Shown piece by piece: positions 434 to 22,367 of a DNA stretch of 32,000 nucleotides. Both the position numbers and the translations under genes were made by a program. Source of the stretch: Gammaproteobacteria bacterium. Its GTDB lineage: Bacteria > Pseudomonadota > Gammaproteobacteria > JBIOEC01. The notes under the pieces are model-generated. The model was not told where the DNA came from. It saw nothing but the letters and a program-made list of their open reading frames with translations, and searched no databases. The DNA lies in the NCBI GenBank assembly GCA_965279305.1, contig OZ257143.1, positions 1,560,001-1,592,000 of the forward strand. Reading direction: 5' to 3'. Within the stretch, counting starts at the first letter, position 1; each line of letters opens with the position of its first letter.

Positions 434-1207
434 ATGAAAACTAAACTCTCTGTTTTAGGTCTTTTATCGGTCGCACTATTGAGTGCTGGCGGCTATTATT
501 TGGCTGAATATATCAAACTAGAGCAAGTCGATAATCAAGTAAAAGCGTGGAAAACCCGTTTAGGTGATTATATTACTTTTGAATATGATGTAATTAGCGC
601 TCGTTTATGGAGTAACAGTATTTCTTTAGAACGAGTATTAATTACTTACCCTACCTTAATGAGCATAGAAAAGTTAACTTTTGCGCCTGTTGAAATAGAT
701 GGTGAGCTTGAACAGTTATATATTGATGCAAAAGGTTTGAGCTTTACCGTCCCAGCCGCTACTGACTCATTAGCCTGGTATGGAAACCTTCAAATAGATT
801 ATCAATACGATTCAGCGAAAAAACAAATTGATTTAACTCTATTATCTGATTTTCCGCAATTATTGAACGGCGAAATTAAAACTACTTTACAAGAAATCAC
901 ACCTAATATTGATTTAGTATTTAGTTATCCTAATGTGCTTTTATCTTCTTTAAGCGTGCAATTTCAAAACTATGGATTATTGCAAACCATGGGGTATGGG
1001 AACAGTAACGACGCAGAACTCATAGAGTGGATGAATCAATTTGCTCAAAAAAACCAGAGACAAGCGTTTGCTGATTTTTGGTTAAAGAACATGCCCCTTA
1101 ATATTCAATTTTCACCTGAATATCCTGTGCCGCTCTATCGTCTCTTAGAAAACGATCGTTTATTTTGGCAACATCCTGCCGTTATCATGCAGCCATTGCC
1201 TGGTTAA
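434..1207 (+). CDS. Hypothetical membrane-anchored or secreted protein (257 aa)
   Basis: ORF track. N-terminal hydrophobic segment LSVLGLLSVALLSAGGYYL looks like a signal peptide or anchor. No family recognised. Confidence 0.6.
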   Translation: MKTKLSVLGLLSVALLSAGGYYLAEYIKLEQVDNQVKAWKTRLGDYITFEYDVISARLWSNSISLERVLITYPTLMSIEKLTFAPVEIDGELEQLYIDAKGLSFTVPAATDSLAWYGNLQIDYQYDSAKKQIDLTLLSDFPQLLNGEIKTTLQEITPNIDLVFSYPNVLLSSLSVQFQNYGLLQTMGYGNSNDAELIEWMNQFAQKNQRQAFADFWLKNMPLNIQFSPEYPVPLYRLLENDRLFWQHPAVIMQPLPG

Positions 1208-3615
1208 GCAGGAGTAGCAATTAACAAGGATTGCAAAGAGGGTGGTGGTGCTTCTTCTGTTTTTTGTTGAGTAGCAAATGTATCGGCAGTAAAATATTTA
1301 TTAACACTTTGCCCAAACGTTATTTTTTCAGGAACTGGCGCTTCTACTTTTTGCAATGAAGCAGTACTTACTGAGCTCGCCAGCGTTTCACTGGATTCTT
1401 CTTTGATTTGTTTGGGCGCTTTTTTAAACACTGCTTTATCATGCTTTCTTTGGACATAAGGTTTTATTGCATAAATAATTCGTTTCAAATTATCTTGAGT
1501 TGGACTTACTTCATAATCCGCAATAATATAGAGATTTTTTCGGGCATTTTCCATTTTTATTTCATGTTTAGTATGAAGTTGGGTATAACTGTTTTCACCA
1601 AAGCTAAACAATTTTCTTAAAAATAGACCGAATTTACCTAGAGCAGTAGTAGGTTGTTCCATTTTAGAATATGAACTATTGGAGCTAGGGAAAGTTAGAT
1701 TAACGATATAATTAAATACCGGTAATTGTGCTACACCTTCCAAGATGGATTTGGGTAATCCCATCACCAATGAAATAGAAAAAGATATGGCATAGGTAGG
1801 TAATATATATGGGAAAAAAATCAGTGCTTTTAAAATAATGCTTTTAGGTAAAGGAATATAAGCGCTTATTTTTTCAAATGGATAACGAATGTTGTAATAA
1901 ACTCTATGAGCAAGAGCAGCAAAAAGACTAGATAAATTTGATTTTGCACGGTATTTTTCATGGTATTCTAAGAAAAATGTTTTAGCTGCTTGAACGTCAT
2001 TAGCATTCCATTCATGTTCAGGCTTTAGTTCATAATTAATTGTATCAGGGGCAAATTCATTAATGGCATAAGGATCGGTTTTAAGTTTATTTCCACCATG
2101 CATGACAGCAGAAGAAACAATGCCTGCCGTTGCATAGCCTGCAAACAACGTCCACAAAGTGGTTATTCCTCCGGTAAGCAAACCCGTTAAATGAGCCAGA
2201 ATAAAAATAACGGTAATCACTACATATCTTATAAAGCGTTTAAACCACCAATTACTAGCCACATTAATCGTATCAGGCTCTAAGCCATCAAAAGTGCGAT
2301 GTAGATTCACAGATGCATGCTGAGCACGTCCTTTTCCAATTTCATGGCCAACGGCAGCACCCACTAAAGTGCCCAAAAAAGCTGATAAAGGAATGACAGC
2401 TATAGGGGAAAAAATAAATGAAAAAGCAGTTCCTAATACCGCAAATATGGCAGCAGATGCAGCTGCTGCTGTCGTGGTTTTATTATGAATACCAATATTT
2501 TGATCTTCTAAAGGACTGGTTCCACCACTAAATAAACGTAGTCTTTGATCGCTTACGGTAAAGCCAAGCAAATATTTGAGTTGTTTTTTTTGCTTTTTAT
2601 TTAAATCTAAATAGGTATCGGTTTTCCAGAATTTAAGGCGCTGATACCATTTTTTAGGTTTATTAATATCTTTAATAATTTCTTCAAAGTCTTTTTCAGT
2701 AAGGAAAGTGCTGTGATCGGATTTTTTTGATTTTATCTTTCCAAATCTGACATTAAATTTGATTAATAATGTATTAGCATCACGAATTTGGTTTAGCTCA
2801 TCATGGTTAAATGTATTATTATCCAGAATTTTAAATTTGTTAGAAATAGCTTTTTTTCCGATCTCTGAGTGGATCAATTGTATCGTTAGTCTTTCGGCTA
2901 ATTCAGGAGTGAGCTCGGCAATAGTTAGTTTGGAAGGAAGCCCAAAAACCTCACGTACCTGACTGATTTTCTCTTGGGTAAAGCCTAATAAGTATTTAAA
3001 AGTATTCCGCTTGGTCGCAGGGATTATTTCGGCTATTATATTTAATTCTCTATCGGTAAGAATTCTTTTTTTATTGGCTTTGGGAACAGAATTCAATGCG
3101 TAAAATTTTGCTTTTAAGTCGTTTTTTTGATTATTATTCAACTCTAGTTTTTTAGATAAAAGCTCAGCTTTTTTATCGGTTAGTTCAGAAACGTAGGTAA
3201 TGTTAAATCGTGTTTTCCATTTATTTCTTAATGCTTGACCTGCTTTCACGATTCCTCTTACTAAAAATGGAAACGAAAAGTTAATGGCAATAGCGCCTAA
3301 AACTAAAGTAGCCACTCCCCAACCCACAGGATTAGAAACAATAAGAAGAGCGGTAAAGGTAGCCGCGATGACAACGGCAATTAAGGTAATAATATTAAGG
3401 GCTCTATTTTGTCTTCGCTCTGTTCTTAATGCATAGGCGAGGGGAGTTTTTTCTGGGGTAATACTTTTATACTCATCGGTAGGTGAGGAGCTAAAAATAG
3501 AGCCTATACCGTAGAGAAGCGAATTGAGATAGGGAACGTATAAATCGACGTAGCGTTTAAATCTAGCATTAAAAGATAAATCTTCTGTTAGATAATGGGG
3601 TAATTCCTTAGACAT
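1204..3615 (-). CDS. Large orphan membrane protein (803 aa) with several hydrophobic hairpin clusters and an internal duplication
   Basis: ORF track. Long hydrophobic clusters include ALNIITLIAVVIAATFTALLIVSNPVGWGVATLVLGAIAINFSFPF, AAIFAVLGTAFSFIFSPIAVIPLSAFLGTLVGAAVG, YVVITVIFILAHLTGLLTGGITTLWTLFAGYATAGIV and ALIFFPYILPTYAISFSISLVMGL. Lys-rich soluble regions lie between them. GAGGGA lies upstream of the ATG. Confidence 0.7.
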   Translation of the reverse strand: MSKELPHYLTEDLSFNARFKRYVDLYVPYLNSLLYGIGSIFSSSPTDEYKSITPEKTPLAYALRTERRQNRALNIITLIAVVIAATFTALLIVSNPVGWGVATLVLGAIAINFSFPFLVRGIVKAGQALRNKWKTRFNITYVSELTDKKAELLSKKLELNNNQKNDLKAKFYALNSVPKANKKRILTDRELNIIAEIIPATKRNTFKYLLGFTQEKISQVREVFGLPSKLTIAELTPELAERLTIQLIHSEIGKKAISNKFKILDNNTFNHDELNQIRDANTLLIKFNVRFGKIKSKKSDHSTFLTEKDFEEIIKDINKPKKWYQRLKFWKTDTYLDLNKKQKKQLKYLLGFTVSDQRLRLFSGGTSPLEDQNIGIHNKTTTAAAASAAIFAVLGTAFSFIFSPIAVIPLSAFLGTLVGAAVGHEIGKGRAQHASVNLHRTFDGLEPDTINVASNWWFKRFIRYVVITVIFILAHLTGLLTGGITTLWTLFAGYATAGIVSSAVMHGGNKLKTDPYAINEFAPDTINYELKPEHEWNANDVQAAKTFFLEYHEKYRAKSNLSSLFAALAHRVYYNIRYPFEKISAYIPLPKSIILKALIFFPYILPTYAISFSISLVMGLPKSILEGVAQLPVFNYIVNLTFPSSNSSYSKMEQPTTALGKFGLFLRKLFSFGENSYTQLHTKHEIKMENARKNLYIIADYEVSPTQDNLKRIIYAIKPYVQRKHDKAVFKKAPKQIKEESSETLASSVSTASLQKVEAPVPEKITFGQSVNKYFTADTFATQQKTEEAPPPSLQSLLIATPA

Positions 3616-7535: not shown

Positions 7536-7900
7536 AACTACCCAATAACGCATTGACTAAAACACTACAAACTTTACCTAAAGACTTTATTTATTTTACA
7601 GCGTGTAAAATAATTTTAGCCTTGCTAGTTTTTTTAAGCGTAGGTGCTTTATTTGTATTTGCTGCCATTATCCCTTTGCATATGTACAACGCGCCTTGGT
7701 GGGCCGTTGTAGCTGGCGGGTGGGGCGGATGGTTTTTCTTTTTAAGTATTTTCTTGGTCGCTTATTTTGTTTTACAAAGTCGCTATAGAACCAAATTAGA
7801 ATTACTGATTAATCTGGCCAATAAGCAAATTTTTGCCAGCTTAGGCATTTTTGCTTTTAATAATGTGCTACGTAAGCTTCATCTTAAGAAATCGCGATAG
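7532..7900 (+). CDS. Small two- to three-TM membrane protein, in the YqjE-like position downstream of the ElaB/YqjD-like gene
   Basis: ATGA start/stop overlap with the upstream gene. Hydrophobic segments IILALLVFLSVGALFVFAAIIPL and WGGWFFFLSIFLVAYFVL. The family assignment rests on gene order only. Confidence 0.5.
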   Translation: MKLPNNALTKTLQTLPKDFIYFTACKIILALLVFLSVGALFVFAAIIPLHMYNAPWWAVVAGGWGGWFFFLSIFLVAYFVLQSRYRTKLELLINLANKQIFASLGIFAFNNVLRKLHLKKSR

Positions 7901-10082
7901 ATGATAATGCGCTTACTGCAGGACTATCTGGCTCATCGTTAATATAGTTTTTCACCAAATCAGCGCCTGTCGTATCGTACATTTCTAACCATTTTAGGGG
8001 GGAGCGTCTTGAGCCCACTCCCTCGCGCAAAAAAACATCCGTCCATGCACTAACTGGTAGTTTAGATATTAATGCTTTGAGTAAGAAATAATTATTGATG
8101 GCTAATAATTCACGACCAGAAGGATGATGACATAGCCAATATAAAGCGCTGGTATTGGCATGCTTGCCTTTTTGCACTACATAATTCCAGGCGCTAGCGG
8201 GCAAGCTTAATACTCTCTCTAATAAAAGCAGATTATCATAAAACAAATCAATACCTGCATCATCACGACATAGTGAAAATAAACAACTGCTTTCACTATC
8301 TTGATCATACGATCCTTGAGATGTCCATACATGATCATCCATTTCTATTAAATAATAAATCAATCTAGGTTCTTTTGAGAGTAGTACTAAGCCTCTCTTT
8401 TGCGACATTAATATTGATAAAGGTGAAGTTCCTTTTAAAAAGCCACGTGATTCAATCGACCCCCATACGTATAGAGGCAATTTAGCGAGTATTTCAAAGG
8501 CTTTACCTACCTCTAATAAGTAAATCAGATCAGGAAGACAAATTAATTGTATGGCTGATAAACTTCTTTTTACAGAAAAAGGATTACTAAAATCCTTAGG
8601 CCTGAACGCTGCATACATTCTTGAGTAGTCTACCCCCCATTCACAATTTCTTGTTTTTGAAAAATCATTTTCAGGTTCAGAATCATTGCTTTTTACTGCC
8701 CACAAAACTTCACCCAGTCTACAAATTTTTTCTAATAATAAAGGCGATCTTGATAATAACTGAACAGAAAAGAGATTCATTAATGCATTTTGAAGTATAT
8801 TGCAATGTTCAAAAATAAGAGGTTTTATAATGGTCACAGAACCATCTTGTTGGTTGAATATTCTCCATTCGAGACTAGCTGCGCCATTTTGGTAGAATAC
8901 GATTTGTTTAAAGTAGTTTAAAATACTCTTAACACTCATGAAACAAACTCTTTTAAATAAAGGGTACGGTAGAGAAAATACACCGGTATGAAATGCTCGT
9001 TCCAAAATTTGTTGATCAGTAAAATGGATAGCTGCATCTACTAGGGTGTCCTCTGAAAATTCTTGAAATTTATCATCTAATAGAGGAAATGTAGTTAAAA
9101 CCCTATTATCTGAATCATGCGTTAATAATAAACCCAAAGCAGATAAAGCATTTTTTCTTTTGCTCCAAGTCTTTTCTGACAATCTGCACAATAAATTTCC
9201 AAAATCGCTATGAGATAACACTAGATTTATGCCCTCGGAGCTACTGAGCAAAGATTCCAATGGTTTTCGCGTAATTTGACCCAGATCATTTATCCCTCTT
9301 TTTCCCCACAGCTCATCCGGTAATGAGCAAAGCCTTCTAATTAATATAGGATGCTCTGCCATCCAAAAAATATCACTGGAAGAAAATAAAACATGCAACG
9401 GTGTCATATTGATGTCTGTAAACGGCCATATATAAGGATTAAATTGTGTAGTACAAGCCCATGCTTTCAATGAAAGAGAAGCAATTTTAGTAGTTAATGC
9501 AGGTTTTCGAAAGCAAGCATCGCTGGACAATAATAGACATGCTAAACGTAATGGAGTCTCATTATCCTGAACCATCCCAGGTGAATTTGTCCAACATGGG
9601 TCTGGTACTTCCGCAATAATATCAAAAAGTTGAGGATATTTTACTAAATATCTAGGGTTATTAAAAACTGACATTAAAAACTTTTTGGCCCAGAAAGGTA
9701 GTTTAAATATTAAGTCATTGAATAAATAATCATGGCGAAGCGAATATTCTAGTGAATAATCTAAGGTCTCACAAAAAAAATCTCCTAATCTAAGGTGGGC
9801 TACCGCAGCATATTCTGGATATGAAAAATACTCACTGACACGAGATAATATGAAAGAAGTTAATAAAGTTTGATTACCCTTAATATGATTTTCACTTTCT
9901 GAAAAAACGTTCGGTGTTTCAGAAAAAGGTAATTCCGGTATTTGCCTTAGCCTAGGTGCGCCAGAGTTCATTCTTGGACTATGAATGAAGACAGCAGAGG
10001 AAGGGCGCCTAATAACTTCAGGCACAGGACGTGGAGCAGCTTTAGATTTTTTCCAAGCACGCCCCTTTAATTTTTTAAACAT
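7884..10082 (-). CDS. Orphan 732-aa protein built from at least 8 degenerate ~45-50-aa repeats (LPxxxW...G...[ST]PL..L.....G..LL)
   Basis: ORF track. Repeats are visible by eye, for example LPASAWNYVVQKGKHANTSALYWLCHHPSGRELL, LPVSAWTDVFLREGVGSRRSPLKWLEMYDTTGADLV, LPLYVWGSIESRGFLKGTSPLSILMSQKRGLVLL and LPDELWGKRGINDLGQITRKPLESLLSSSEGINLV. Confidence 0.75.
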   Translation of the reverse strand: MFKKLKGRAWKKSKAAPRPVPEVIRRPSSAVFIHSPRMNSGAPRLRQIPELPFSETPNVFSESENHIKGNQTLLTSFILSRVSEYFSYPEYAAVAHLRLGDFFCETLDYSLEYSLRHDYLFNDLIFKLPFWAKKFLMSVFNNPRYLVKYPQLFDIIAEVPDPCWTNSPGMVQDNETPLRLACLLLSSDACFRKPALTTKIASLSLKAWACTTQFNPYIWPFTDINMTPLHVLFSSSDIFWMAEHPILIRRLCSLPDELWGKRGINDLGQITRKPLESLLSSSEGINLVLSHSDFGNLLCRLSEKTWSKRKNALSALGLLLTHDSDNRVLTTFPLLDDKFQEFSEDTLVDAAIHFTDQQILERAFHTGVFSLPYPLFKRVCFMSVKSILNYFKQIVFYQNGAASLEWRIFNQQDGSVTIIKPLIFEHCNILQNALMNLFSVQLLSRSPLLLEKICRLGEVLWAVKSNDSEPENDFSKTRNCEWGVDYSRMYAAFRPKDFSNPFSVKRSLSAIQLICLPDLIYLLEVGKAFEILAKLPLYVWGSIESRGFLKGTSPLSILMSQKRGLVLLSKEPRLIYYLIEMDDHVWTSQGSYDQDSESSCLFSLCRDDAGIDLFYDNLLLLERVLSLPASAWNYVVQKGKHANTSALYWLCHHPSGRELLAINNYFLLKALISKLPVSAWTDVFLREGVGSRRSPLKWLEMYDTTGADLVKNYINDEPDSPAVSALSSIAIS

Positions 10083-13007: not shown

Positions 13008-13907
13008 ATGATTTCATTTAGGAACCTATTATCAATAACGTTAATATCAGCTTTAGGGGCTTTTTCTATGGCCTTTGCTGATAAAGAAGCGCCAACTCAA
13101 ACTATCGTACACAAAAAATTAATGGAACTTGAAGCGTCTGCTAATGGGCGATTAGGTATATCTGTGCTCAATACGGCAAACAATGAACATATTGAATACC
13201 GTGCTGAAGAACGTTTTCCTATGCAAAGTACGTTTAAAGTGATGGTGGTAGCGGCAATTCTTAAGCAAAGCATGAATGATGATCAACTTCTTCAAAAGAA
13301 AATCAGCTATACAAAACAGGATATTGCCACTTGGTCTCCTGTTACTGAAAAACATATTTCCAAAGGAATGACTATTTCTGAACTGTGTGCAGCCGCTATT
13401 ATGTATAGCGATAATACCGCCGCCAATCTTTTAATAAAAGAACTGGGTGGGGCAAACGAAGTGATGGTATTTGCTCGTTCTATTGGTGACTATACTTATA
13501 GCTTAGAAAGAAAACCAGAAGAGTTTGCCTCTATTCCTGCTGATATTAACTATACCTCCACACCTGCAGCTATGGAAAAAAGCCTAGAAAAAATAATATT
13601 GGGCGATGTATTAGGAACAAAAGAAAAAGAACAATTACTCCATTGGATAAAGGAAAATACAACAGGCGATCTGCGAATACGCGCCGGTGTGCCAAAAGGG
13701 TGGGTGGTTGCCGATAAAACGGGCTCTGGCGATTATGGTATCACCAATGATATAGCCGTGATCTATCCGCCCACTTGCAAACCCATTATAGCTAGCATTT
13801 ATTTTATACAAAACAAAAAAGAAGCGACTACGCGTCCCGATATTATTGCTTCAGCAACACGTTACATTATGGATGACTTAGCAGAAAATGATGACTGTTT
13901 AAAATAA
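13008..13907 (+). CDS. bla: Class A (serine) beta-lactamase homolog with an atypical omega loop
   Basis: Signal peptide ...GAFSMAFA. S-T-F-K at aa 74-77, SDN 60 residues later (Ambler 70/130 spacing) and KTG in ADKTGSG. The omega loop reads LERKPEEFASIP instead of L.R.EP.LN..IP. Confidence 0.9.
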   Translation: MISFRNLLSITLISALGAFSMAFADKEAPTQTIVHKKLMELEASANGRLGISVLNTANNEHIEYRAEERFPMQSTFKVMVVAAILKQSMNDDQLLQKKISYTKQDIATWSPVTEKHISKGMTISELCAAAIMYSDNTAANLLIKELGGANEVMVFARSIGDYTYSLERKPEEFASIPADINYTSTPAAMEKSLEKIILGDVLGTKEKEQLLHWIKENTTGDLRIRAGVPKGWVVADKTGSGDYGITNDIAVIYPPTCKPIIASIYFIQNKKEATTRPDIIASATRYIMDDLAENDDCLK

Positions 13908-14676: not shown

Positions 14677-15054
14677 ATGAAAACGATATTATTTGTAGAA
14701 GATGATGGGATAAATCAGGCTATTGTAAAAGGCATGCTAAATAAAATGGGATATTCAAATATTCAATTTGCAAGTACTGCTGCTCAAGCATTAGACTTAC
14801 TAGAAAATCCAGGCCTTAAAATTGACGCAATATTGATGGATCTGGGTCTACCAGATATGGATGGGGTTGAACTCACAAAAAAAATAAGAGCTAGCAGCCT
14901 TACTGCAAAGGGCGTTCCTATTATTGCTATTACTGGAAATAGTCGCGAAAAAGCCAAAGAAGAAAGTTTAGCAGCAGGAATGAATGCTTTTTTGACCAAA
15001 CCAGTTAAACGAGAAATTTTAGAAAGTACGCTCAGTGAATTTCTTAATGATTAA
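14677..15054 (+). CDS. Single-domain (CheY-like) response regulator
   Basis: Receiver signature ILFVEDDGINQ, ILMDLGLPDMDG (phospho-acceptor Asp), PIIAITGN and FLTKP. No output domain. Confidence 0.9.
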   Translation: MKTILFVEDDGINQAIVKGMLNKMGYSNIQFASTAAQALDLLENPGLKIDAILMDLGLPDMDGVELTKKIRASSLTAKGVPIIAITGNSREKAKEESLAAGMNAFLTKPVKREILESTLSEFLND

Positions 15055-15070: not shown

Positions 15071-16702
15071 CTATTTTTTATTTTTCCAGTTTGTCCATGC
15101 CTCAACTATTTTTTTATCTAATTCACTAGGTAGAATAGGTTTTTTTATAAAATCGAAGCAACCCATCTCTCTCGCTTTATCGTACCATTTTTTATCTCTA
15201 TTTTGCTTTGGATGAAGGGATAATAATTTCATTAATGAAAAATATTTTTCATCTTTGTGGAGATTATTTATAAGCTCAAGTGGATTATTGATCTCGTCGT
15301 CTACTATTAAAATTTCAAAAGGGTTTTTATTTTTTAGTGCATCTTCCAGCTTATTAACTACCTCAGAGCTATTTGTCTTTGAAATAAAAGCTTGTTCAAA
15401 CTGATTAAAAAGTGTCTCAGTTGATGTAATTTTGTCGCTTACAATAAGTATACGGACTCTTTGATGAAGTTTTTCCCACTCGGATACGAAGAATGCCATA
15501 TCAAGGGCTTGAAATGGAAGGTTGACGGTAAATTTGGTGCCTTCTCCTGGTTCACTCTCAACCTCAACTTTACCATTAAGTTTATCTACCAACTCTTTTA
15601 CCACCGATAAACCAATACCATGGCCTGCTTTCAAGCCTTTATTAGATAACTCTAAGCGATGAAACCGCTCAAAAATTTCTTTATATTTATCTTTAGGTAT
15701 TCCTTTGCCTGTATCTTTTACGGCTATTTGCAAATCGATATTATCGCCTTCTTTAGAAAAGACACTCACTGATATAGAGATGTGTCCTTCATCAGTAAAT
15801 TTAACTGCATTACTAATCAGGTTAAGCAAAATGCTTGTGACACAATATGCATCGCTTATTAAATGGCGCGGGACATCTGCGGGATAGCAGATTATGATAT
15901 CTACGGGCTTATTTTTTAACTGGAATCTAAATCCGTCAACCACCGACTCTATAATTTCGAGTAAATTAAGCTCTTCTTGGACTATCTCAAGCGTCCCAGA
16001 AGCAATTTTTTTATAGTTCAATATATCATCAACAAGATCTATCACTCTCAATGTTGATTTTTCTTGCATAGTAATAAGCTCTTGTATGTCCTCCGGTAAC
16101 TCTGGTTTTCTATCCGAGAGGAGTTGTACTGTCCCATAAATACCATTAAGAGGTGTTTTAAAATCATGGCTCATGTTTTCCATAAAAGCATCTTTGGCAA
16201 GATTAGCTGCTTCTGCCTTTTCTTTAGCTTCTAGTAAAGCTGCTTGAGTTTCTTTAAGTTCAGTAACATCAAGAGAATTACCAATAATTCCTATAACATT
16301 ATCATTCTCATCTAAAAATGGAAGTTTAAGGGATGTAAAAAACCTACGACCTAGTTTAGGTAAATTTACAACTTCCTCTTTATAGAGGGGTTCTCGAGTT
16401 CGCATTACCTCAATGTCGTTTTGCCTTAGTTCCTCGGCTTGTTCGGGCCATAAATCGAAATCGGTTTTTCCTATAAAATCTTTGCGGGAAGCAATATTAA
16501 TAGCTTCTAATAATGCTTTGTTACAACCCAAATAATGGCCTTCTTTGTCTTTCCAGTAGAAGTTACCTGGCATAACATCTGTCATTTTTTCCAAATAGCT
16601 TTGAAAAGTGTTTTTTTCAGAAGGGCGATCGTTTGAGTTTTGAGGATTTTTCTTACTTATTTTATTAGAAGATAGTTGCTGAGCTTTAGTTTTCTTTACC
16701 AT
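15071..16702 (-). CDS. Cytoplasmic PAS-containing hybrid sensor histidine kinase (PAS, HisKA, HATPase, divergent receiver)
   Basis: H-box SHDFKTPLNG (His179), N-box LLNLISNAVKFT, G1 VKDTGKGIP, F IFERFHR and G2 GHGIGLSVV. C-terminal receiver-like region at aa 416-537. No TM segment seen. An alternative start lies at 16585 (Met40). Confidence 0.9.
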   Translation of the reverse strand: MVKKTKAQQLSSNKISKKNPQNSNDRPSEKNTFQSYLEKMTDVMPGNFYWKDKEGHYLGCNKALLEAINIASRKDFIGKTDFDLWPEQAEELRQNDIEVMRTREPLYKEEVVNLPKLGRRFFTSLKLPFLDENDNVIGIIGNSLDVTELKETQAALLEAKEKAEAANLAKDAFMENMSHDFKTPLNGIYGTVQLLSDRKPELPEDIQELITMQEKSTLRVIDLVDDILNYKKIASGTLEIVQEELNLLEIIESVVDGFRFQLKNKPVDIIICYPADVPRHLISDAYCVTSILLNLISNAVKFTDEGHISISVSVFSKEGDNIDLQIAVKDTGKGIPKDKYKEIFERFHRLELSNKGLKAGHGIGLSVVKELVDKLNGKVEVESEPGEGTKFTVNLPFQALDMAFFVSEWEKLHQRVRILIVSDKITSTETLFNQFEQAFISKTNSSEVVNKLEDALKNKNPFEILIVDDEINNPLELINNLHKDEKYFSLMKLLSLHPKQNRDKKWYDKAREMGCFDFIKKPILPSELDKKIVEAWTNWKNKK

Positions 16703-19700
16703 TCTGAATAAACCTTGTTTTTATTAAATAATCTATATATTTTTTTAAAAGATTATTATCTATGTTTGGATAAGCTAAATTTAACTTCTTAAATGCAACC
16801 CTGGTGTTATTATCACATACTTTGGATATTCCAGAAAGGCCTTCGTTCCATTCTATATTTGGATTCATATGTAATGATAATAAATTGAATAAAGCATTAT
16901 TCTCATCAATTTCAGCTAAATATTTACTTCTCCATTCACTGGAATCTACTATAGAAATAGGGAACCCATTGTTATTTAGGAACAAAATTAACTCTTTCCA
17001 AGTAATAGAATGGTTATTAGAAAAATTAAAAACATTTTTCTTAATGTCACTTTCTAATGAAATTTTTATAATTGATTCGGCCAAAAAATCCACCGGTAGT
17101 ATATTCAGTTCCATTTCCCAGTCAGGGGCTGCTTTCATTTGAATACAGCCTTTTAGCAAGAGCAGAAGATGATTTTTTTCGGAAGATACTCTTCCGGTCT
17201 GAGTATCCCCTAAAATCCAACCAGGTCGAAATATTTTAACAGCAATTCCCTTCAAATGGGCTACAGCCAATATCTTTTCAGAAGCCCATTTTGTTTGATT
17301 ATATCCATCTAATAAATGGGAAGAATTCGAAAAGTCTGGAATAAAGTCTTCAATTACTTCTTCTTCACTTATATATTCAACAACAGCTGATAGGGTAGAA
17401 ATATAACAGATTTTTTTTATTCTATTTAAAGTAGCTAATTTAATAACTTCGATTGTGCTTAAAACATTTTCTTGTCTAAGTATTTCATAACCATAAATGT
17501 GGTTTACATGAGCCGCATTATGGTATATGGCGTCAATTTTTTCAGTTAAAATAGAATAAGTTTCAGAAGATAAGCCAAGACAAGGAAGAGATATGTCTCC
17601 AAATAATGGTTTAATTCGATTTTTAAGCCTTAAATTCAAATCATATTTTTTTATGGTTTGATTTAATCGAACAACTGCTTGATCCATTGAGCTTGCTCTG
17701 ATCAAGCAATAAATATCACCCTCATATTCTCTTGATAAAGAAGCCAATAAATATGCGCCTAAAAAACCAGTGCAGCCTGTTATTAATATTGCGCCACCAT
17801 TTTTATTAGAGTGCTGACTATGTTTTCTTATATTGTATTTATTCCAGCTTATATCATCAGCTATAATTTTTTTACTTAATTCATCAATTTTTAAGTCTGA
17901 TTTATTGTAAATAATACGAGCCAGATAGGCAATTGTTGGAAACTTCAAAAATTCATGTATATTTAAATCAAAATTAAACATGCGCTTTACATCCAATATT
18001 AACTTGGTTAATAAAAGAGAATGACCTCCTAAATCAAAAAAATCATCCAAAACGCTCACTTTTTTCAAAAAAAATAATTTAGCCCATATGGTACATAACT
18101 TTTGTTCAATTTCACTGGATGGTGGCACATATTGAGATTGATATTCTCTTTTATCTTTATCTGGGAGAGGTAGTTTTTTGAAATCAATTTTACCATTTAA
18201 TGTTAATGGTATTTTATTAACTATTAAAAAAAATCGAGGGATCATGTAGTCAGGAAGGGTTTTTGACAATTCCCTTTTTATCTCTGATAAGACATTATTT
18301 CCAACCGATTTATCTTTAACTAAATATGCAATTAAATAATTTTCTTGGTTTTTTTCTTTAGCTTCGATTACCACGCATTGGAGAATATTTCCGTTTTTTA
18401 ATACAATTTTTTCAATACCCTCCAATTCAACTCTGTGGCCACGAATTTTAACTTGCTTATCAATTCGACCCAGATAATCTATCGTGCCTTCAGGTGTCCA
18501 CCTGGCAATATCCCCTGTCTTATACAAGCGATCATTCCCATTTTCTAAAAAAGGATTATTAATAAATTTTTCGTTTGTTAGTTCTACATTATTTAGATAC
18601 CCGATAGCCACTCCATCGCCCCCCGTAAATAATTGTCCAGGGACTCCAAGCGGAGTAGGGAGCAAATGCTCGTCCAGAATATATGCTGTAGTATTAGAAA
18701 TAGGTTTCCCTATAGGAATAGAATCAGAATAAAGATTGTTTTCACTCATTAAATAGGTCGTTGTAAAAGTAGTATTTTCTGTGGGGCCATATCCATTTAG
18801 TATATATTTTGGAGATCCCGCTTCGCATTGGATAAGTTTCTGCACTTTTTCAGGCTTAACAACATCACCGCCCACCAGCAAATAAGTTAAATTACTAAAC
18901 ATTTCAGGCATATTAGAAACATGCTCATGAAATAGAGGGGCAGTAAGGAACAAAATCGAGATTTTTTTATTTTTTAGAAAACGAGAAAATTTAATCGGGT
19001 TTAATAAGGAATCTTTGGAGACTTCTATAAGAGTTGCCCCATTTAAAAGAGCGCCCCATATTTCAAATGTAGCTGCATCAAAACTGATATTCGCGGCTTG
19101 TGCAACCTTATCGAAAGATTTTATAGAAATATAATTGGTGTTTTTTACTAGTCGGATAATTCCTTTATGGGTCACCATAACTCCTTTAGGTTTTCCGGTA
19201 GTACCCGAAGTGTAAATAATATAAGCCAATTGGCTTGAATCAAATGGGCACACTAAATTTTGAAAGTCTTCATTTTCAATATCGTGAGCCACTCCATCAG
19301 GAGAAATAATTTTTGAAGTAGTAATTTTTTTAATTACCTTAGTATATTTTTTTTTGACTAAAATTACTTCTGGTTTACAATCGGCTAAGATATTTTTTAT
19401 ATGCTCAATACCAGACATTGGATCTATAGGAATATATGAAGCACCAATCTTCAAAATGGCTAATAAATTAACAGCTAATGATAAATCATGGTCTGCCAAT
19501 ACCGCTATAAGACTATTTTTCCCACACTTGTTTTTTAACAAAAAATTAGCAAGTTTATTTGATTTTTCATTTAATTCTTTATATGTTAATGATTGACTAT
19601 TCGAAATAACTGCTTTATGGTCAGGGGTTTCTTTTACCTGTTCCTGAAAAATTTCAGTAATTGTTTTTTCCGATGGATAGGATGTTGTGGTTTTATTCCA

Positions 19701-21404
19701 ATCAAATAAAATTGATTGACATTCTTTTTCTGTTAAAAGAGATATTTGATCAATTTTATTTTTTTTATTATCCACTAAACTTTTCAATAAAATTGAAAAA
19801 TGTTGCGGAATATTATCTACAATCTGTTTCACGTATCTTCTCATTAATACTTCTTCATTAACTAGCCATGTTATTTTTCTACCATTCGTATTTATTATCA
19901 TAGCAACATCTGTGTTTAAAAGCCTTTCGATTTTTTCGATTGGATCATCAGTAATAAAAATACCAATTTGGGAGGCATGGATATAGTTACGTAAATCAGG
20001 GTATCGTTGCTGAATATCCTTTAAATATGATATGTTTTCAACAATTGATAAATAATGGGTATTAACTAAACTTACAGCTTCCCAAAAAGTTGTTTTTCCA
20101 TCTAGATCAACAAGAAAGGGAAGTGTTTCACTAAAAAAATCATTAATATTTTCATCTATACATTTTAATTTTGGATGGTATAAAAATATACCTAATGTCT
20201 CTTTATTGCCTAATTTATATAAATAAACCAACCAAATCGCTAATACTATCTGATAAAATTCCACCTCCGAAAATGCATTTTTAGCTTCTTCATAAATATC
20301 AATGGGTACAAATAAAGTATGTACAGTAATATATTTTTTATTCTTTAATATAGAGTTAGGCGCCTTAAGAAAGGGTAGGAGGGCAGGTTTAAAGCACCTT
20401 AGTTGCTTTACCCAAAAATATTCAAACTTTGATAAAGTACTACTTATTTTTTCAAATTCCTTTAAGTCATTGTCAGTAGGGCTGTTTAAGCGAACACCTA
20501 ATTTAAGATTATGTTTTTTAGCGACTTCTGCTAATGAGCAGGGCACACCTTCTATTGTTAAAATTTCAAATATTAATAGGTCATATGTTTTTGTGGAAAT
20601 CTGCCAATTATTTTCATCTAAATTTACCAATGTTCCAGGAAAATGCTTGGATTTTTCTGCTGTTATAGAACAATTTTTTATGGTAAATGCATCGCCTGAT
20701 ATTTTAAATTTTGTCAAACTTAATTGATTAATATAATGCCCCAATTCTAATGCTTTATATGTTTGTACTATTATTTCAGCAGATGAATTCCAGTTAATCC
20801 ATCCATTGCCAGGAGGCTTATGAAACACACTATAATAACTTCTTAATTCCAAGTTTTGAGGAGAAATTTGATATGCAGATTGTTCTAATTCTGGGATAAG
20901 TTTGGTAAATAATTTCACTCCTATCTGATAGCATTTCATGCTTAAACTAAAAGCCGTATCATTTTTTTCTATATTTATTTTTTCTTGTTTTAAAATACCT
21001 CCTCCATCGATCTGACTATTCATGATATGCCAAGTGACACCATGTGTTTTTTCATTATTAAGAATAGCCCATGAAGTAGGAAACAAACCTGCATATTGGG
21101 GTAGTAAGGCAGTATGAAAATTAATACTCAAAAATCTTGGTAAGCTTATGATATCGTCAGGAAGTATCTGGCTATTTATGATGCTAAATAAATAATCAAA
21201 TTCTTTTTTTAATAATGTTGGTTTAGCCTTTTCTATTGTTTTGAAACAAGGGATATTTTTTTCAGTAGCCCATTCTTGGATAGTATCAAGGGGAGATATA
21301 ATACCTAGACATTGCCATTTCCGTGATAGCAATATTTTTGCACAATCGATAAGCAAACTATCTTCTCCCACTAGAAAAAACTTCAGCGGAGCGGCATTTT
21401 TCAT
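16686..21404 (-). CDS. Single-module NRPS-like synthetase: formyltransferase-like domain, condensation-domain remnant, adenylation, PCP and thioester reductase domains
   Basis: F domain: INFHTALLPQYAG and QIDGGGIL. A1-A10 motifs include LTYKELN, AYIIYTSGTTGKPKGV, FDAATFE, NGYGPTENT, YKTGDIARW, GRIDKQVKIRGHRVELEGIE, LPDYMIP and NGKIDFKKL. PCP: FFDLGGHSLL. R domain: ILITGCTGFLGAYLL and YNQTK. Confidence 0.9.
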   Translation of the reverse strand: MKNAAPLKFFLVGEDSLLIDCAKILLSRKWQCLGIISPLDTIQEWATEKNIPCFKTIEKAKPTLLKKEFDYLFSIINSQILPDDIISLPRFLSINFHTALLPQYAGLFPTSWAILNNEKTHGVTWHIMNSQIDGGGILKQEKINIEKNDTAFSLSMKCYQIGVKLFTKLIPELEQSAYQISPQNLELRSYYSVFHKPPGNGWINWNSSAEIIVQTYKALELGHYINQLSLTKFKISGDAFTIKNCSITAEKSKHFPGTLVNLDENNWQISTKTYDLLIFEILTIEGVPCSLAEVAKKHNLKLGVRLNSPTDNDLKEFEKISSTLSKFEYFWVKQLRCFKPALLPFLKAPNSILKNKKYITVHTLFVPIDIYEEAKNAFSEVEFYQIVLAIWLVYLYKLGNKETLGIFLYHPKLKCIDENINDFFSETLPFLVDLDGKTTFWEAVSLVNTHYLSIVENISYLKDIQQRYPDLRNYIHASQIGIFITDDPIEKIERLLNTDVAMIINTNGRKITWLVNEEVLMRRYVKQIVDNIPQHFSILLKSLVDNKKNKIDQISLLTEKECQSILFDWNKTTTSYPSEKTITEIFQEQVKETPDHKAVISNSQSLTYKELNEKSNKLANFLLKNKCGKNSLIAVLADHDLSLAVNLLAILKIGASYIPIDPMSGIEHIKNILADCKPEVILVKKKYTKVIKKITTSKIISPDGVAHDIENEDFQNLVCPFDSSQLAYIIYTSGTTGKPKGVMVTHKGIIRLVKNTNYISIKSFDKVAQAANISFDAATFEIWGALLNGATLIEVSKDSLLNPIKFSRFLKNKKISILFLTAPLFHEHVSNMPEMFSNLTYLLVGGDVVKPEKVQKLIQCEAGSPKYILNGYGPTENTTFTTTYLMSENNLYSDSIPIGKPISNTTAYILDEHLLPTPLGVPGQLFTGGDGVAIGYLNNVELTNEKFINNPFLENGNDRLYKTGDIARWTPEGTIDYLGRIDKQVKIRGHRVELEGIEKIVLKNGNILQCVVIEAKEKNQENYLIAYLVKDKSVGNNVLSEIKRELSKTLPDYMIPRFFLIVNKIPLTLNGKIDFKKLPLPDKDKREYQSQYVPPSSEIEQKLCTIWAKLFFLKKVSVLDDFFDLGGHSLLLTKLILDVKRMFNFDLNIHEFLKFPTIAYLARIIYNKSDLKIDELSKKIIADDISWNKYNIRKHSQHSNKNGGAILITGCTGFLGAYLLASLSREYEGDIYCLIRASSMDQAVVRLNQTIKKYDLNLRLKNRIKPLFGDISLPCLGLSSETYSILTEKIDAIYHNAAHVNHIYGYEILRQENVLSTIEVIKLATLNRIKKICYISTLSAVVEYISEEEVIEDFIPDFSNSSHLLDGYNQTKWASEKILAVAHLKGIAVKIFRPGWILGDTQTGRVSSEKNHLLLLLKGCIQMKAAPDWEMELNILPVDFLAESIIKISLESDIKKNVFNFSNNHSITWKELILFLNNNGFPISIVDSSEWRSKYLAEIDENNALFNLLSLHMNPNIEWNEGLSGISKVCDNNTRVAFKKLNLAYPNIDNNLLKKYIDYLIKTRFIQNGKEN

Positions 21405-21580
21405 GTGATATTGATTCCTAAATTATCAACCGTTATGCAATGGTATTACCAGAATACTCAATTCTATCTTACGTAAGTTTAGCAAATCTGATAGTACATC
21501 ATTCTAGCGTAAAATAGGCTAGCGGTAACTGGATAAATATACTTATTCGAAGTCATTAGCTAATATAGTTTAATTACTTA

Positions 21581-21608
21581 ATTATACCTGTTGGTGACTA
21601 TCATTCAA
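21581..21608 (-). promoter_or_regulatory. Near-consensus sigma70 promoter TTGAAT-16 nt-TATAAT for the synthetase gene
   Basis: On the minus strand, TTGAAT is the complement of 21603-21608 and TATAAT the complement of 21581-21586. It begins 7 nt after the PPTase stop and implies a ~170-nt leader before the ATG at 21404. Confidence 0.5.
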
Positions 21609-21614
21609 TAGGTT

Positions 21615-22367
21615 CTATTGTATGATATTTGAGCAAGAGTGGTAGTAAATTTGATAATAAGAAGAGATCCCTTCATAAACTAGAGAGGCTTGATAATCCA
21701 TTTCTGCAGGTAATGGGATTAGCTGGTAAACGCTACCTTTAACAAATAAAATCCCTGGATTTATAACATTTAATGTATGTAATGGGTAAGTAAGCCCTTC
21801 GCCCATACATTTAATTAAAGCTTCTTTTCGTGTCCATATTTCAAAAAACGCTTTTTTCTGCTCTTGAAAGGATAAAGGTGATAGCATTTGGTATTCTTCT
21901 TCTGTAAATAACTCTTCGGCAATTACACCATAATCTATAATTTTTTTAATATATTCTACATCAATCCCCATCCTGTATTTTTTACCTACGGCTATCAGTA
22001 GGCAATTATTAGCATGTGAGATATTAAAGTGGATATTCTCGGTATTTTGAGAAGGGCTGATTTCAGGTTTTCCATATCGAGAATAGGCCATACGGATACT
22101 TTGTGGGGGCAGGTGGAGATAACTCCCTAATAAAATTCGCAAAATCCCTCTTGATAAAACATAATTTTGATAGGGTTCTTTTCGGGTATATGCGGATATC
22201 CTATCAAATTCATCAGGGCTTAAAAGTGGCTCCAATCTCGGAGTATAAGGCAGCAATTCATTAAACTTAATGCTCCATACATGTAATATGCCCGAAGAAA
22301 GTTCCGGGAATGGGGCGTTTAATTTTAATAGAGTGTTTAAGTCGACTTTTTGAATATTAAGGTTCAA
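21615..22367 (-). CDS. Sfp-type 4'-phosphopantetheinyl transferase
   Basis: Motifs YGKPEI, FNISHANN, GIDVEYI and WTRKEALIKCMGEGL. The track start is a TTG without an obvious RBS, so the start is uncertain. Confidence 0.85.
   Translation of the reverse strand: MNLNIQKVDLNTLLKLNAPFPELSSGILHVWSIKFNELLPYTPRLEPLLSPDEFDRISAYTRKEPYQNYVLSRGILRILLGSYLHLPPQSIRMAYSRYGKPEISPSQNTENIHFNISHANNCLLIAVGKKYRMGIDVEYIKKIIDYGVIAEELFTEEEYQMLSPLSFQEQKKAFFEIWTRKEALIKCMGEGLTYPLHTLNVINPGILFVKGSVYQLIPLPAEMDYQASLVYEGISSYYQIYYHSCSNIIQ

Follow-up and report, generated by a model that had tools for sequence, protein, structure and literature searches.

A one-module F-C*-A-T-R nonribosomal peptide synthetase with a paired PAS histidine kinase gene in a gammaproteobacterial genome

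Analysis of a 32,000-nucleotide stretch of gammaproteobacterial DNA (GenBank assembly GCA_965279305.1, contig OZ257143.1, positions 1,560,001 to 1,592,000 of the forward strand; hereafter the window, numbered from its first letter) led to a gene for a nonribosomal peptide synthetase (NRPS) that probably is a self-contained, one-module enzyme making an N-formyl amino aldehyde or amino alcohol of the valine/isoleucine type. The gene (16686..21404) is a single open reading frame (ORF) of 1572 uninterrupted codons with an ATG start at the coordinates that an initial annotation of this DNA had given; it lies on the minus strand, and the protein is 100% identical to database protein P0025. It is composed of a formyltransferase domain (F), the isolated C-terminal lobe of a condensation domain (C*), an adenylation domain (A), a thiolation domain or peptidyl carrier protein (PCP or T) and a thioester reductase (R) in the order F-C*-A-T-R. 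The synthetase adds a new and rather divergent member to a family that has already been described, and the product prediction is not new either. Two observations deserve to be kept: C* is found family-wide in formylating loaders, and in Legionella-like genomes a PAS histidine kinase gene strictly accompanies the synthetase gene, the latter being a new point. Neither of these overturns current understanding.

Domain architecture and substrate specificity

Pfam and NCBIfam models establish the identity of the domains and place F N-terminal to A-T within one polypeptide. The Pfam matches are Formyl_trans_N (amino acids (aa) 77-167), Formyl_trans_C (aa 200-298), AMP-binding (aa 586-937), AMP-binding_C (aa 997-1072), PP-binding (aa 1101-1164) and NAD_binding_4 (aa 1208-1445). 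The initial annotation had predicted Formyl_trans_N/C, AMP-binding, PP-binding and NAD_binding_4, all of which were found, as well as Condensation, for which the protein gave no match even at E ≤ 1. All residues that it had cited are in place (N95, H97, D133, Ser1129, the TGxxGxxG motif at 1209-1216 and Y1368/K1372). The coordinates of the domains given below are all on the minus strand.

The F domain consists of a catalytic N-terminal subdomain (aa 1-190, 20835..21404) with the residues Asn95, His97 and Asp133, detected by Formyl_trans_N at 6e-17 (62.4 bits against a cutoff of 26.1), and a C-terminal subdomain of the Fmt/ArnA type (aa 200-298, 20511..20807), which narrowly passes the Formyl_trans_C cutoff (1.7e-4, 22.2 bits against 21.1) and is also recognized by the NCBIfam ArnA model, positions 47-315 of which align to aa 44-317, and in an AlphaFold model. 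The sequence INFHTALLPQYAG, beginning at aa 94, includes N95 and H97, and QIDGGGIL, beginning at aa 131, includes D133. Among 80 relatives N95 is invariant, H97 and D133 are conserved in at least 90%, and the HxxLLP loop is conserved as well. In a comparison of aa 1-310 with sequences in the PDB, sugar N-formyltransferases with the C-terminal subdomain ranked first (QdtF/FdtF, 2e-19), followed by Fmt and ArnA, and the F domain of LgrA (residues 45-144) matched solely aa 67-167. The AlphaFold model of aa 1-600, built on the 80 relatives, has a predicted local distance difference test (pLDDT) score of 93 and a predicted template modelling (pTM) score of 0.87, with pLDDT >95 for the Fmt fold. Its first ~310 residues superpose on the whole of Fmt (3tqq) with a target-normalized template modelling (TM) score of 0.86 and a root-mean-square deviation of 3.0 Å, and on the ArnA formyltransferase domain with a target-normalized TM score of 0.85. 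The profile matches and superpositions bear out the earlier proposal that aa 1-310 form a transformylase with an Fmt-like C-terminal subdomain. Judging from sequence and model, F is a complete and probably active two-subdomain transformylase of the Fmt/ArnA type.

The segment between F and A (C*, aa ~311-575, 19680..20474) comprises an isolated C-terminal lobe and the canonical linker between condensation (C) and A domains. With ~265 aa, as compared to ~450 aa for a two-lobed C domain, it lacks the N lobe, and no HH dipeptide occurs anywhere in the 1572-aa protein, so that the HHxxxDG motif of C domains is absent. Since the Pfam Condensation model failed on C*, phmmer searches against 1.84 billion representative proteins and fold comparison were used instead. 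Searching with aa 301-590 gave 4849 matches, which besides members of the protein's own family include internal positions of large multimodular NRPSs. In nine multimodular NRPSs the alignment, when extrapolated to aa 300, starts 23-30 residues past the HHxxxDG motif; in sequence register, C* appears to begin at about the boundary between the N lobe and the C lobe of a C domain. Conservation is highest in aa 524-590, a stretch that runs from the last part of the C lobe through the C-A linker into the beginning of A and matches C-A junctions in many multimodular NRPSs as well as those of McyB and Txo1 in the PDB. In a Foldseek search with the AlphaFold model of aa 301-600 (pLDDT 91, pTM 0.87), each of the top 50 matches in the PDB was to a C, Cy or X domain of an NRPS (E down to 8e-11), among them those of Txo1, LgrA module 2 (C domain), TycB, McyB, EntF and SrfA-C. 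Residues E328, W331, P429 and R467 are invariant in the 80 relatives, and the four strings in which a C remnant had originally been recognized are located at aa 327, 383, 423 and 556. Because of the phmmer register and the fold matches, aa ~311-575 can be considered a true condensation remnant, in agreement with the earlier assignment of aa ~318-575 as a C lobe devoid of HHxxxDG.

Isolated C lobes preceding an A domain have been described before, as C* in module 1 of ACVS and as ADA in Lys2-type reductases, and both systems need them for activity (PMC7884236). Similar to C* and ADA, the segment described here is a C lobe without N lobe and HHxxxDG that directly precedes the A domain, and Lys2-type ADA-A-T-R reductases have the domain order of the NRPS minus F (PMC7884236). 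There are also differences: in C* and ADA the lobe forms the N-terminus of the protein, whereas here a formyltransferase is fused ahead of it, and C* and ADA are said to keep motifs C6-C7 only in part (PMC7884236), whereas the present segment also aligns across a C5-like region. By analogy with these systems, C* is most likely a non-catalytic structural platform which keeps the C:A interface and the linker and holds F against the A core; it may also support adenylation or docking of the carrier domain. In the model of aa 1-600, F and C* are joined by a continuous helix (aa 311-337), and the confident modelling of both as a single unit is consistent with a rigid body. Probably the architecture originated from an ordinary C-A-T module whose C domain had its N lobe replaced by a formyltransferase.

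It is conceivable, although we consider it rather unlikely, that F and C* go further and together constitute a pseudo-condensation domain, in which F would act as the N (donor-side) lobe while the C lobe guides the aminoacyl-carrier arm to the formyl donor, comparable to its part in forming the substrate cleft of a genuine C domain. The start of C* at the expected lobe boundary, the modelling of F and C* as one unit with a shared helix, and the retention of C* in essentially the whole family whatever the tail of the protein would agree with such a role. However, real C domains have their acceptor-PCP site, by published assignment, in the N lobe (PMC7884236), a part that the NRPS lacks, and LgrA formylates without any C lobe. 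The role of a structural platform is the one we prefer for C*.

The A domain (aa 586-1072, 18189..19649) is recognized by Pfam AMP-binding (7.5e-74) and AMP-binding_C and passes the TIGR01733 model for amino acid adenylation (377 bits against a cutoff of 317), D776 and K1072 being the equivalents of Asp235 and Lys517. Its best relatives of solved structure are GrsA-PheA (390 bits) and, less close, a single A domain of LgrA (~300 bits). The PCP (aa 1101-1164, 17913..18104; PP-binding, 2.1e-10, 41.2 bits against a cutoff of 20.8) carries Ser1129 in the sequence GGHS. The reductase (aa 1206-1566, 16707..17789) passes TIGR01746 (Thioester-redct, 276 bits against a cutoff of 213), matches NAD_binding_4 at 2e-56, and contains TGCTGFLG at aa 1209-1216 and the pair Y1368/K1372. 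PCP and R are thus present, as had been annotated, and the A domain is complete and of the amino acid type. A function as fatty-acyl-AMP ligase was rejected, as TIGR01733 passes and all acyl-CoA ligase models remain far below cutoff. An identity as Lys2-type alpha-aminoadipate reductase was likewise rejected, as TIGR03443 scores 417 bits, far short of its cutoff of 1030. Among NCBIfam models, that of AusA aligns to aa 354-1178.

The specificity-conferring residues were placed by motif anchoring, and the chosen columns were checked against the codes of relatives. The residues D776, A777, F780, F819, L843, G845, G871, T879, F880 and K1072 give the code DAFFLGGTFK, which reproduces the code derived by hand in the initial annotation. 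Equal columns in relatives read DAFWLGGTFK (many of the ~1570-aa full-length proteins), DAWTVAAVCK or DAWTIAAVCK, and DILQLGLIWK, which we take to be the textbook codes for Val, Phe and Gly, respectively; this agreement supports the choice of columns. The NRPS code is one residue off DAFWLGGTFK, with F instead of W at position 278. By this comparison the A domain is most likely a W278F variant of a Val-type pocket, with Val or Ile as substrate. Among reductase-terminated relatives at least two specificity groups occur, one with the Val code DAFWLGGTFK and one with the Phe-like codes DAWTVAAVCK/DAWTIAAVCK. Members with the Gly code DILQLGLIWK end at T or at a thioesterase, or belong to longer proteins.

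Family distribution and closest known systems

When GTDB species were scanned with one genome each, using an alignment of the first 600 aa as query, the head composed of F, C lobe, A and T was found in at least 487 species genomes, the best identity being 39% among the matches listed. In nearly all of the best 80 of these at least 487 loci the match extends to about aa 588-600. These 80 loci belong to Legionella, Rickettsiella, Rickettsiales, Holosporales and many cyanobacteria, and also to Entotheonella, Acidobacteria, Chloroflexi and Desulfobacterium. Protein searches showed that the part following the F-C*-A-T head varies: it can be absent, as in Streptomyces proteins of ~1150 aa, or consist of a thioesterase, a luciferase-like monooxygenase, further modules or a reductase. 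C* is kept in essentially the whole family, irrespective of the part after the T domain.

Among described loaders, PtxE (1154 aa) was published as F-A-PCP and as homologous to OzmO, and CongA was described likewise. The first 600 aa are covered in full by alignments to Streptomyces members of the family with 1152-1158 aa, one of them from S. avermitilis, and by sequence the OzmO/CongA/PtxE loaders appear to share the head of F, C*, A and T. They differ from the NRPS described here in being Gly-specific and in lacking R; the N-formylglycine is passed on to a polyketide synthase and becomes an oxazole. From the occurrence of the head in at least 487 genomes, the variety of tails and the descriptions of PtxE, OzmO and CongA it follows that this domain order is the rule for formylating loaders. 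By the sequence comparison, LgrA is the short exception and the F-C*-A-T-R protein is typical. The view of the initial annotation that the domain order is unusual has to be abandoned, given the wide distribution of the head and the F-A-T-R enzymes known from Legionella (PMC5126622, in its passages on cluster C) and from molluscs (PMC11869996).

Full-length relatives were sought by tblastn of the whole protein against the best 80 loci. Matches covering aa 10-1566 with 35-42% identity were found in 14 of the 80 (L001-L003, L005-L008, L012-L014, L016, L018, L037 and L046), all Legionella-like, including L. moravica, L. maioricensis, L. drozanskii, L. drancourtii, L. nautarum, a Tatlockia metagenome-assembled genome (MAG) and several Legionella or gammaproteobacterial MAGs. 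A Legionella sp. MAG (L005) carries two F-C*-A-T-R proteins, P0234 and P0267, on one 120-kb contig (PEQK01000016.1), both with Phe-like codes (DAWIVGAVCK and DAWTIAAVCK). Elsewhere in the family, a tandem of two F-C*-A heads occurs in a Pyrinomonadaceae MAG locus (L077), and a subfamily of ~1570-aa F-C*-A-T proteins (P0228, P0232, P0235, P0238, P0242, P0247 and P0273) carries a luciferase-like monooxygenase domain (PF00296), one of its members being named as MupA/Atu3671 family by one source.

The closest described system is cluster C of Legionella, which according to the passages on it in Tobias et al. (2016, PeerJ) encodes, by sequence, a monomodular F-A-T-Red NRPS (PMC5126622). Its predicted product is an N-formyl amino aldehyde or alcohol that could cyclize to an oxazoline, and L. 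drancourtii is listed in that study's genome table (PMC5126622). Layout and predicted product are the same as those of the NRPS described here. The cluster C passages of that report mention neither the C-lobe segment nor a linked kinase. Compared with the Legionella relatives, the present protein shows only about 40% identity, differs in its A-domain code by F in place of W at position 278, and is encoded next to a phosphopantetheinyl transferase (PPTase) gene that does not adjoin the synthetase gene there.

Outside the bacteria, the mollusc enzyme FmtATR of the bursatellin/oxazinin pathway (JACS 2025) has an Fmt-A-T-R layout, a size of ~180 kDa and N-formyl-tyrosinol as predicted product (PMC11869996). 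Its T-R fragment catalyzes the four-electron reduction of N-formyl-tyrosyl thioesters to N-formyl-tyrosinol, and according to the authors the closest non-invertebrate homologs of the bur-ox genes are bacterial (PMC11869996). FmtATR is similar to the NRPS in domain order and size (~180 kDa and 1572 aa), but it is animal-encoded, contains introns, is Tyr-specific and is clustered with tailoring enzymes. From its size alone we infer that FmtATR may share C* homology.

LgrA (F-A-PCP; PDB 5ES5, 6MFZ and further entries) is the only solved formylating loader, and its F and A domains are homologous to those of the NRPS. As proposed here, its N-terminal F acts on the amino acid bound to the carrier of its own module. 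The LgrA initiation module loads valine. Unlike the NRPS, in which 575 aa precede the A domain, LgrA has an A domain that starts at residue ~200, and it runs on into a second module, not a reductase. Because the F match is confined to LgrA residues 45-144 and the A domain follows from ~200, LgrA lacks both a full Fmt-type C-terminal subdomain and a C lobe, in accordance with the earlier remark that it has no C remnant. Small NRPSs of the PvfC/AusA type likewise use aliphatic amino acids and reductive release, with products tied to signalling or virulence, but they have no F and form free amino aldehydes that react to pyrazinones (PMC10512218), a route that N-formylation would block.

No product has been isolated from any bacterial F-A-T-R synthetase, and the gene therefore offers a compact one-protein route to unexplored N-formyl amino aldehydes and alcohols. 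The segment that is usually drawn as empty in F-A-PCP loaders is a conserved C lobe; this matters for the choice of domain boundaries in NRPS engineering and suggests that formylating loaders arose from ordinary C-A-T modules.

Proposed catalytic cycle, paired kinase and alternative explanations

We infer the following cycle. Ser1129 would be converted to the holo form by the adjoining Sfp-type PPTase or by the general one of the genome. The A domain would then activate a branched-chain aliphatic L-amino acid, most likely Val or Ile, and load it as a thioester, after which F, with Asn95, His97 and Asp133, would transfer the formyl group of N10-formyl-tetrahydrofolate to the tethered alpha-amine, as the F domain of LgrA does. 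Release of the N-formyl-aminoacyl thioester by R with NAD(P)H would give N-formyl-valinal or N-formyl-isoleucinal (two electrons) or the corresponding amino alcohol (four electrons); the alcohol could cyclize to an oxazoline. An N-formyl branched-chain amino aldehyde or alcohol is also the product class that had been proposed initially; it is supported by the computational tests and agrees with the prediction in the cluster C passages of PMC5126622 and with the work on the mollusc enzyme (PMC11869996).

Several points weigh against this proposal. Bacterial F-A-T-R enzymes are known from their sequences alone. Of FmtATR, the T-R fragment alone was active, whereas reproducible activity of the full-length enzyme was not obtained (PMC11869996). 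The code DAFFLGGTFK is identical to no citable code. The sequence of R would be compatible with a stop at the aldehyde as well as with onward reduction to the alcohol. The Pfam Condensation model does not detect C*, and the role suggested for C* is built on analogy to other systems.

The synthetase gene is followed by a gene (15071..16702, minus strand) that encodes, according to Pfam, a soluble PAS-HisKA-HATPase histidine kinase with a weak receiver-like tail (E=0.0023) and, by sequence, a hydrophilic N-terminus. Its ORF overlaps the stop codon of the NRPS gene by 17 nucleotides (nt), and no terminator-like site was found on the minus strand between the two genes. In a comparison of all ORFs in the 14 F-C*-A-T-R loci, the kinase is the only conserved neighbour of the NRPS (14 of 14); it is located immediately downstream on the same strand in 13 of these, with gaps of a few to tens of nt. 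The related kinases are usually larger PAS-HK-REC-Hpt hybrids, the one of L. moravica, for example, having receiver and Hpt domains. Kinase homologs are also found beside several F-C*-A-T loci without R in Legionella-like genomes. In the 14 loci no tailoring, export/transporter or resistance genes are conserved with the NRPS-kinase pair. The pairing suggests that the kinase regulates the NRPS or that both are in a signal-and-sensor relationship, and its strictness in Legionella-like genomes provides a testable idea on the purpose of the product.

Compatible with the proposed chemistry, the NRPS could make a diffusible or intracellular signal for which the co-transcribed PAS kinase is the receptor or feedback sensor; we regard this only as a tentative and unlikely explanation. 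It would account for the kinase being the sole conserved neighbour and for its position, for the overlap of the ORFs with no terminator-like site in between, for the combination of a hydrophilic N-terminus and a PAS sensor domain in a protein related to PAS-HK-REC-Hpt hybrids, and for the lack of conserved transporter and tailoring genes. A loose precedent is the single-module A-T-R enzyme PvfC in the autoinducer-producing pvf cluster (PMC10512218). However, the linkage equally fits a kinase that controls expression of the NRPS. Similarly doubtful is the extension of this idea that F-C*-A-T-R synthetase and PAS kinase form an unrecognized signalling module of Legionella-like bacteria, with specificity variants as signal dialects. 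If so, the PAS domain would sense the small N-formyl amino aldehyde or alcohol made by the NRPS, or a derived oxazoline, with the Val-type, Phe-type and F278 variants as the dialects.

Even less probable is that the product serves as a warhead inhibitor, i.e. an N-blocked amino aldehyde directed against serine, cysteine or threonine proteases of a host or competitor, in the way known for peptide aldehydes. Among named relatives, the locus is closest to Legionella species and to uncultured Gammaproteobacteria, and Legionella-like bacteria live inside host cells. The R domain is capable of aldehyde release, and N-formylation would block the self-condensation of free amino aldehydes to pyrazinones (PMC10512218). 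On the other hand, a protease would have very little to recognize in a single N-formyl residue, the mollusc reductase reduces fully to the alcohol (PMC11869996), and the NRPS has no conserved companion gene for export or self-resistance. Finally, a dead F domain, or one acting elsewhere, which would leave a plain A-T-R reductase like PvfC or Lys2 with a free aldehyde going to pyrazines or pyrazinones, is very improbable: C*-A-T-R is a Lys2-type layout and the NCBIfam alpha-aminoadipate reductase model scores 417 bits, but this is far under its cutoff of 1030, the Asn-His-Asp triad and HxxLLP loop are conserved in the 80 relatives, the whole Fmt fold is modelled with pLDDT >95, and the code is Val-like, not aminoadipate-like.

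Other features of the window

Upstream of the NRPS gene, at a distance of 213 nt, lies a gene for an Sfp-type PPTase (21615..22367, minus strand; Pfam ACPS and AASDHPPT_N), which likely activates Ser1129. A PPTase gene adjoins the synthetase gene in none of the 14 Legionella-like F-C*-A-T-R loci and does so only in more distant loci of F-containing NRPSs (L020, L025, L043, L051, L052, L057 and L068). For Legionella, only one Sfp-type PPTase, of general function, has been reported. Between the PPTase and NRPS genes of the window there is a sigma-70-like promoter sequence (TTGAAT-16-TATAAT, 10/12 matching positions; 21581..21608, minus strand), which is only a candidate because a promoter scan of the region gave 40 sites against 41 expected from shuffled sequence. 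On the other side, a single-domain response regulator (14677..15054, plus strand; Pfam Response_reg, 2.3e-25) is encoded convergently with the kinase; its receiver counterpart in related loci is contained in the larger ORF of a hybrid kinase.

The DNA probably comes from a Legionella-like gammaproteobacterium: a VIT-family protein encoded nearby shares 61-71% identity with proteins of Legionella species and uncultured Gammaproteobacteria. The G+C content of the window is 31-38% over most of its length. It is 0.31-0.32 in the region 16001-22000, which contains the NRPS and kinase genes, as compared to 0.34-0.38 in the surroundings, and peaks at 0.45 in 26001-28000, inside a 1746-aa ORF. This ORF (26666-31906) and two others, of 803 aa (1204-3615) and 732 aa (7884-10082), all on the minus strand, encode no Pfam domain at E ≤ 0.001. 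No tRNA gene was found in the window. A phage-type integrase gene is present at 25393-26625 and a gene for a beta-lactamase of the Beta-lactamase2 family (class A-type) at 13008-13907 (plus strand).

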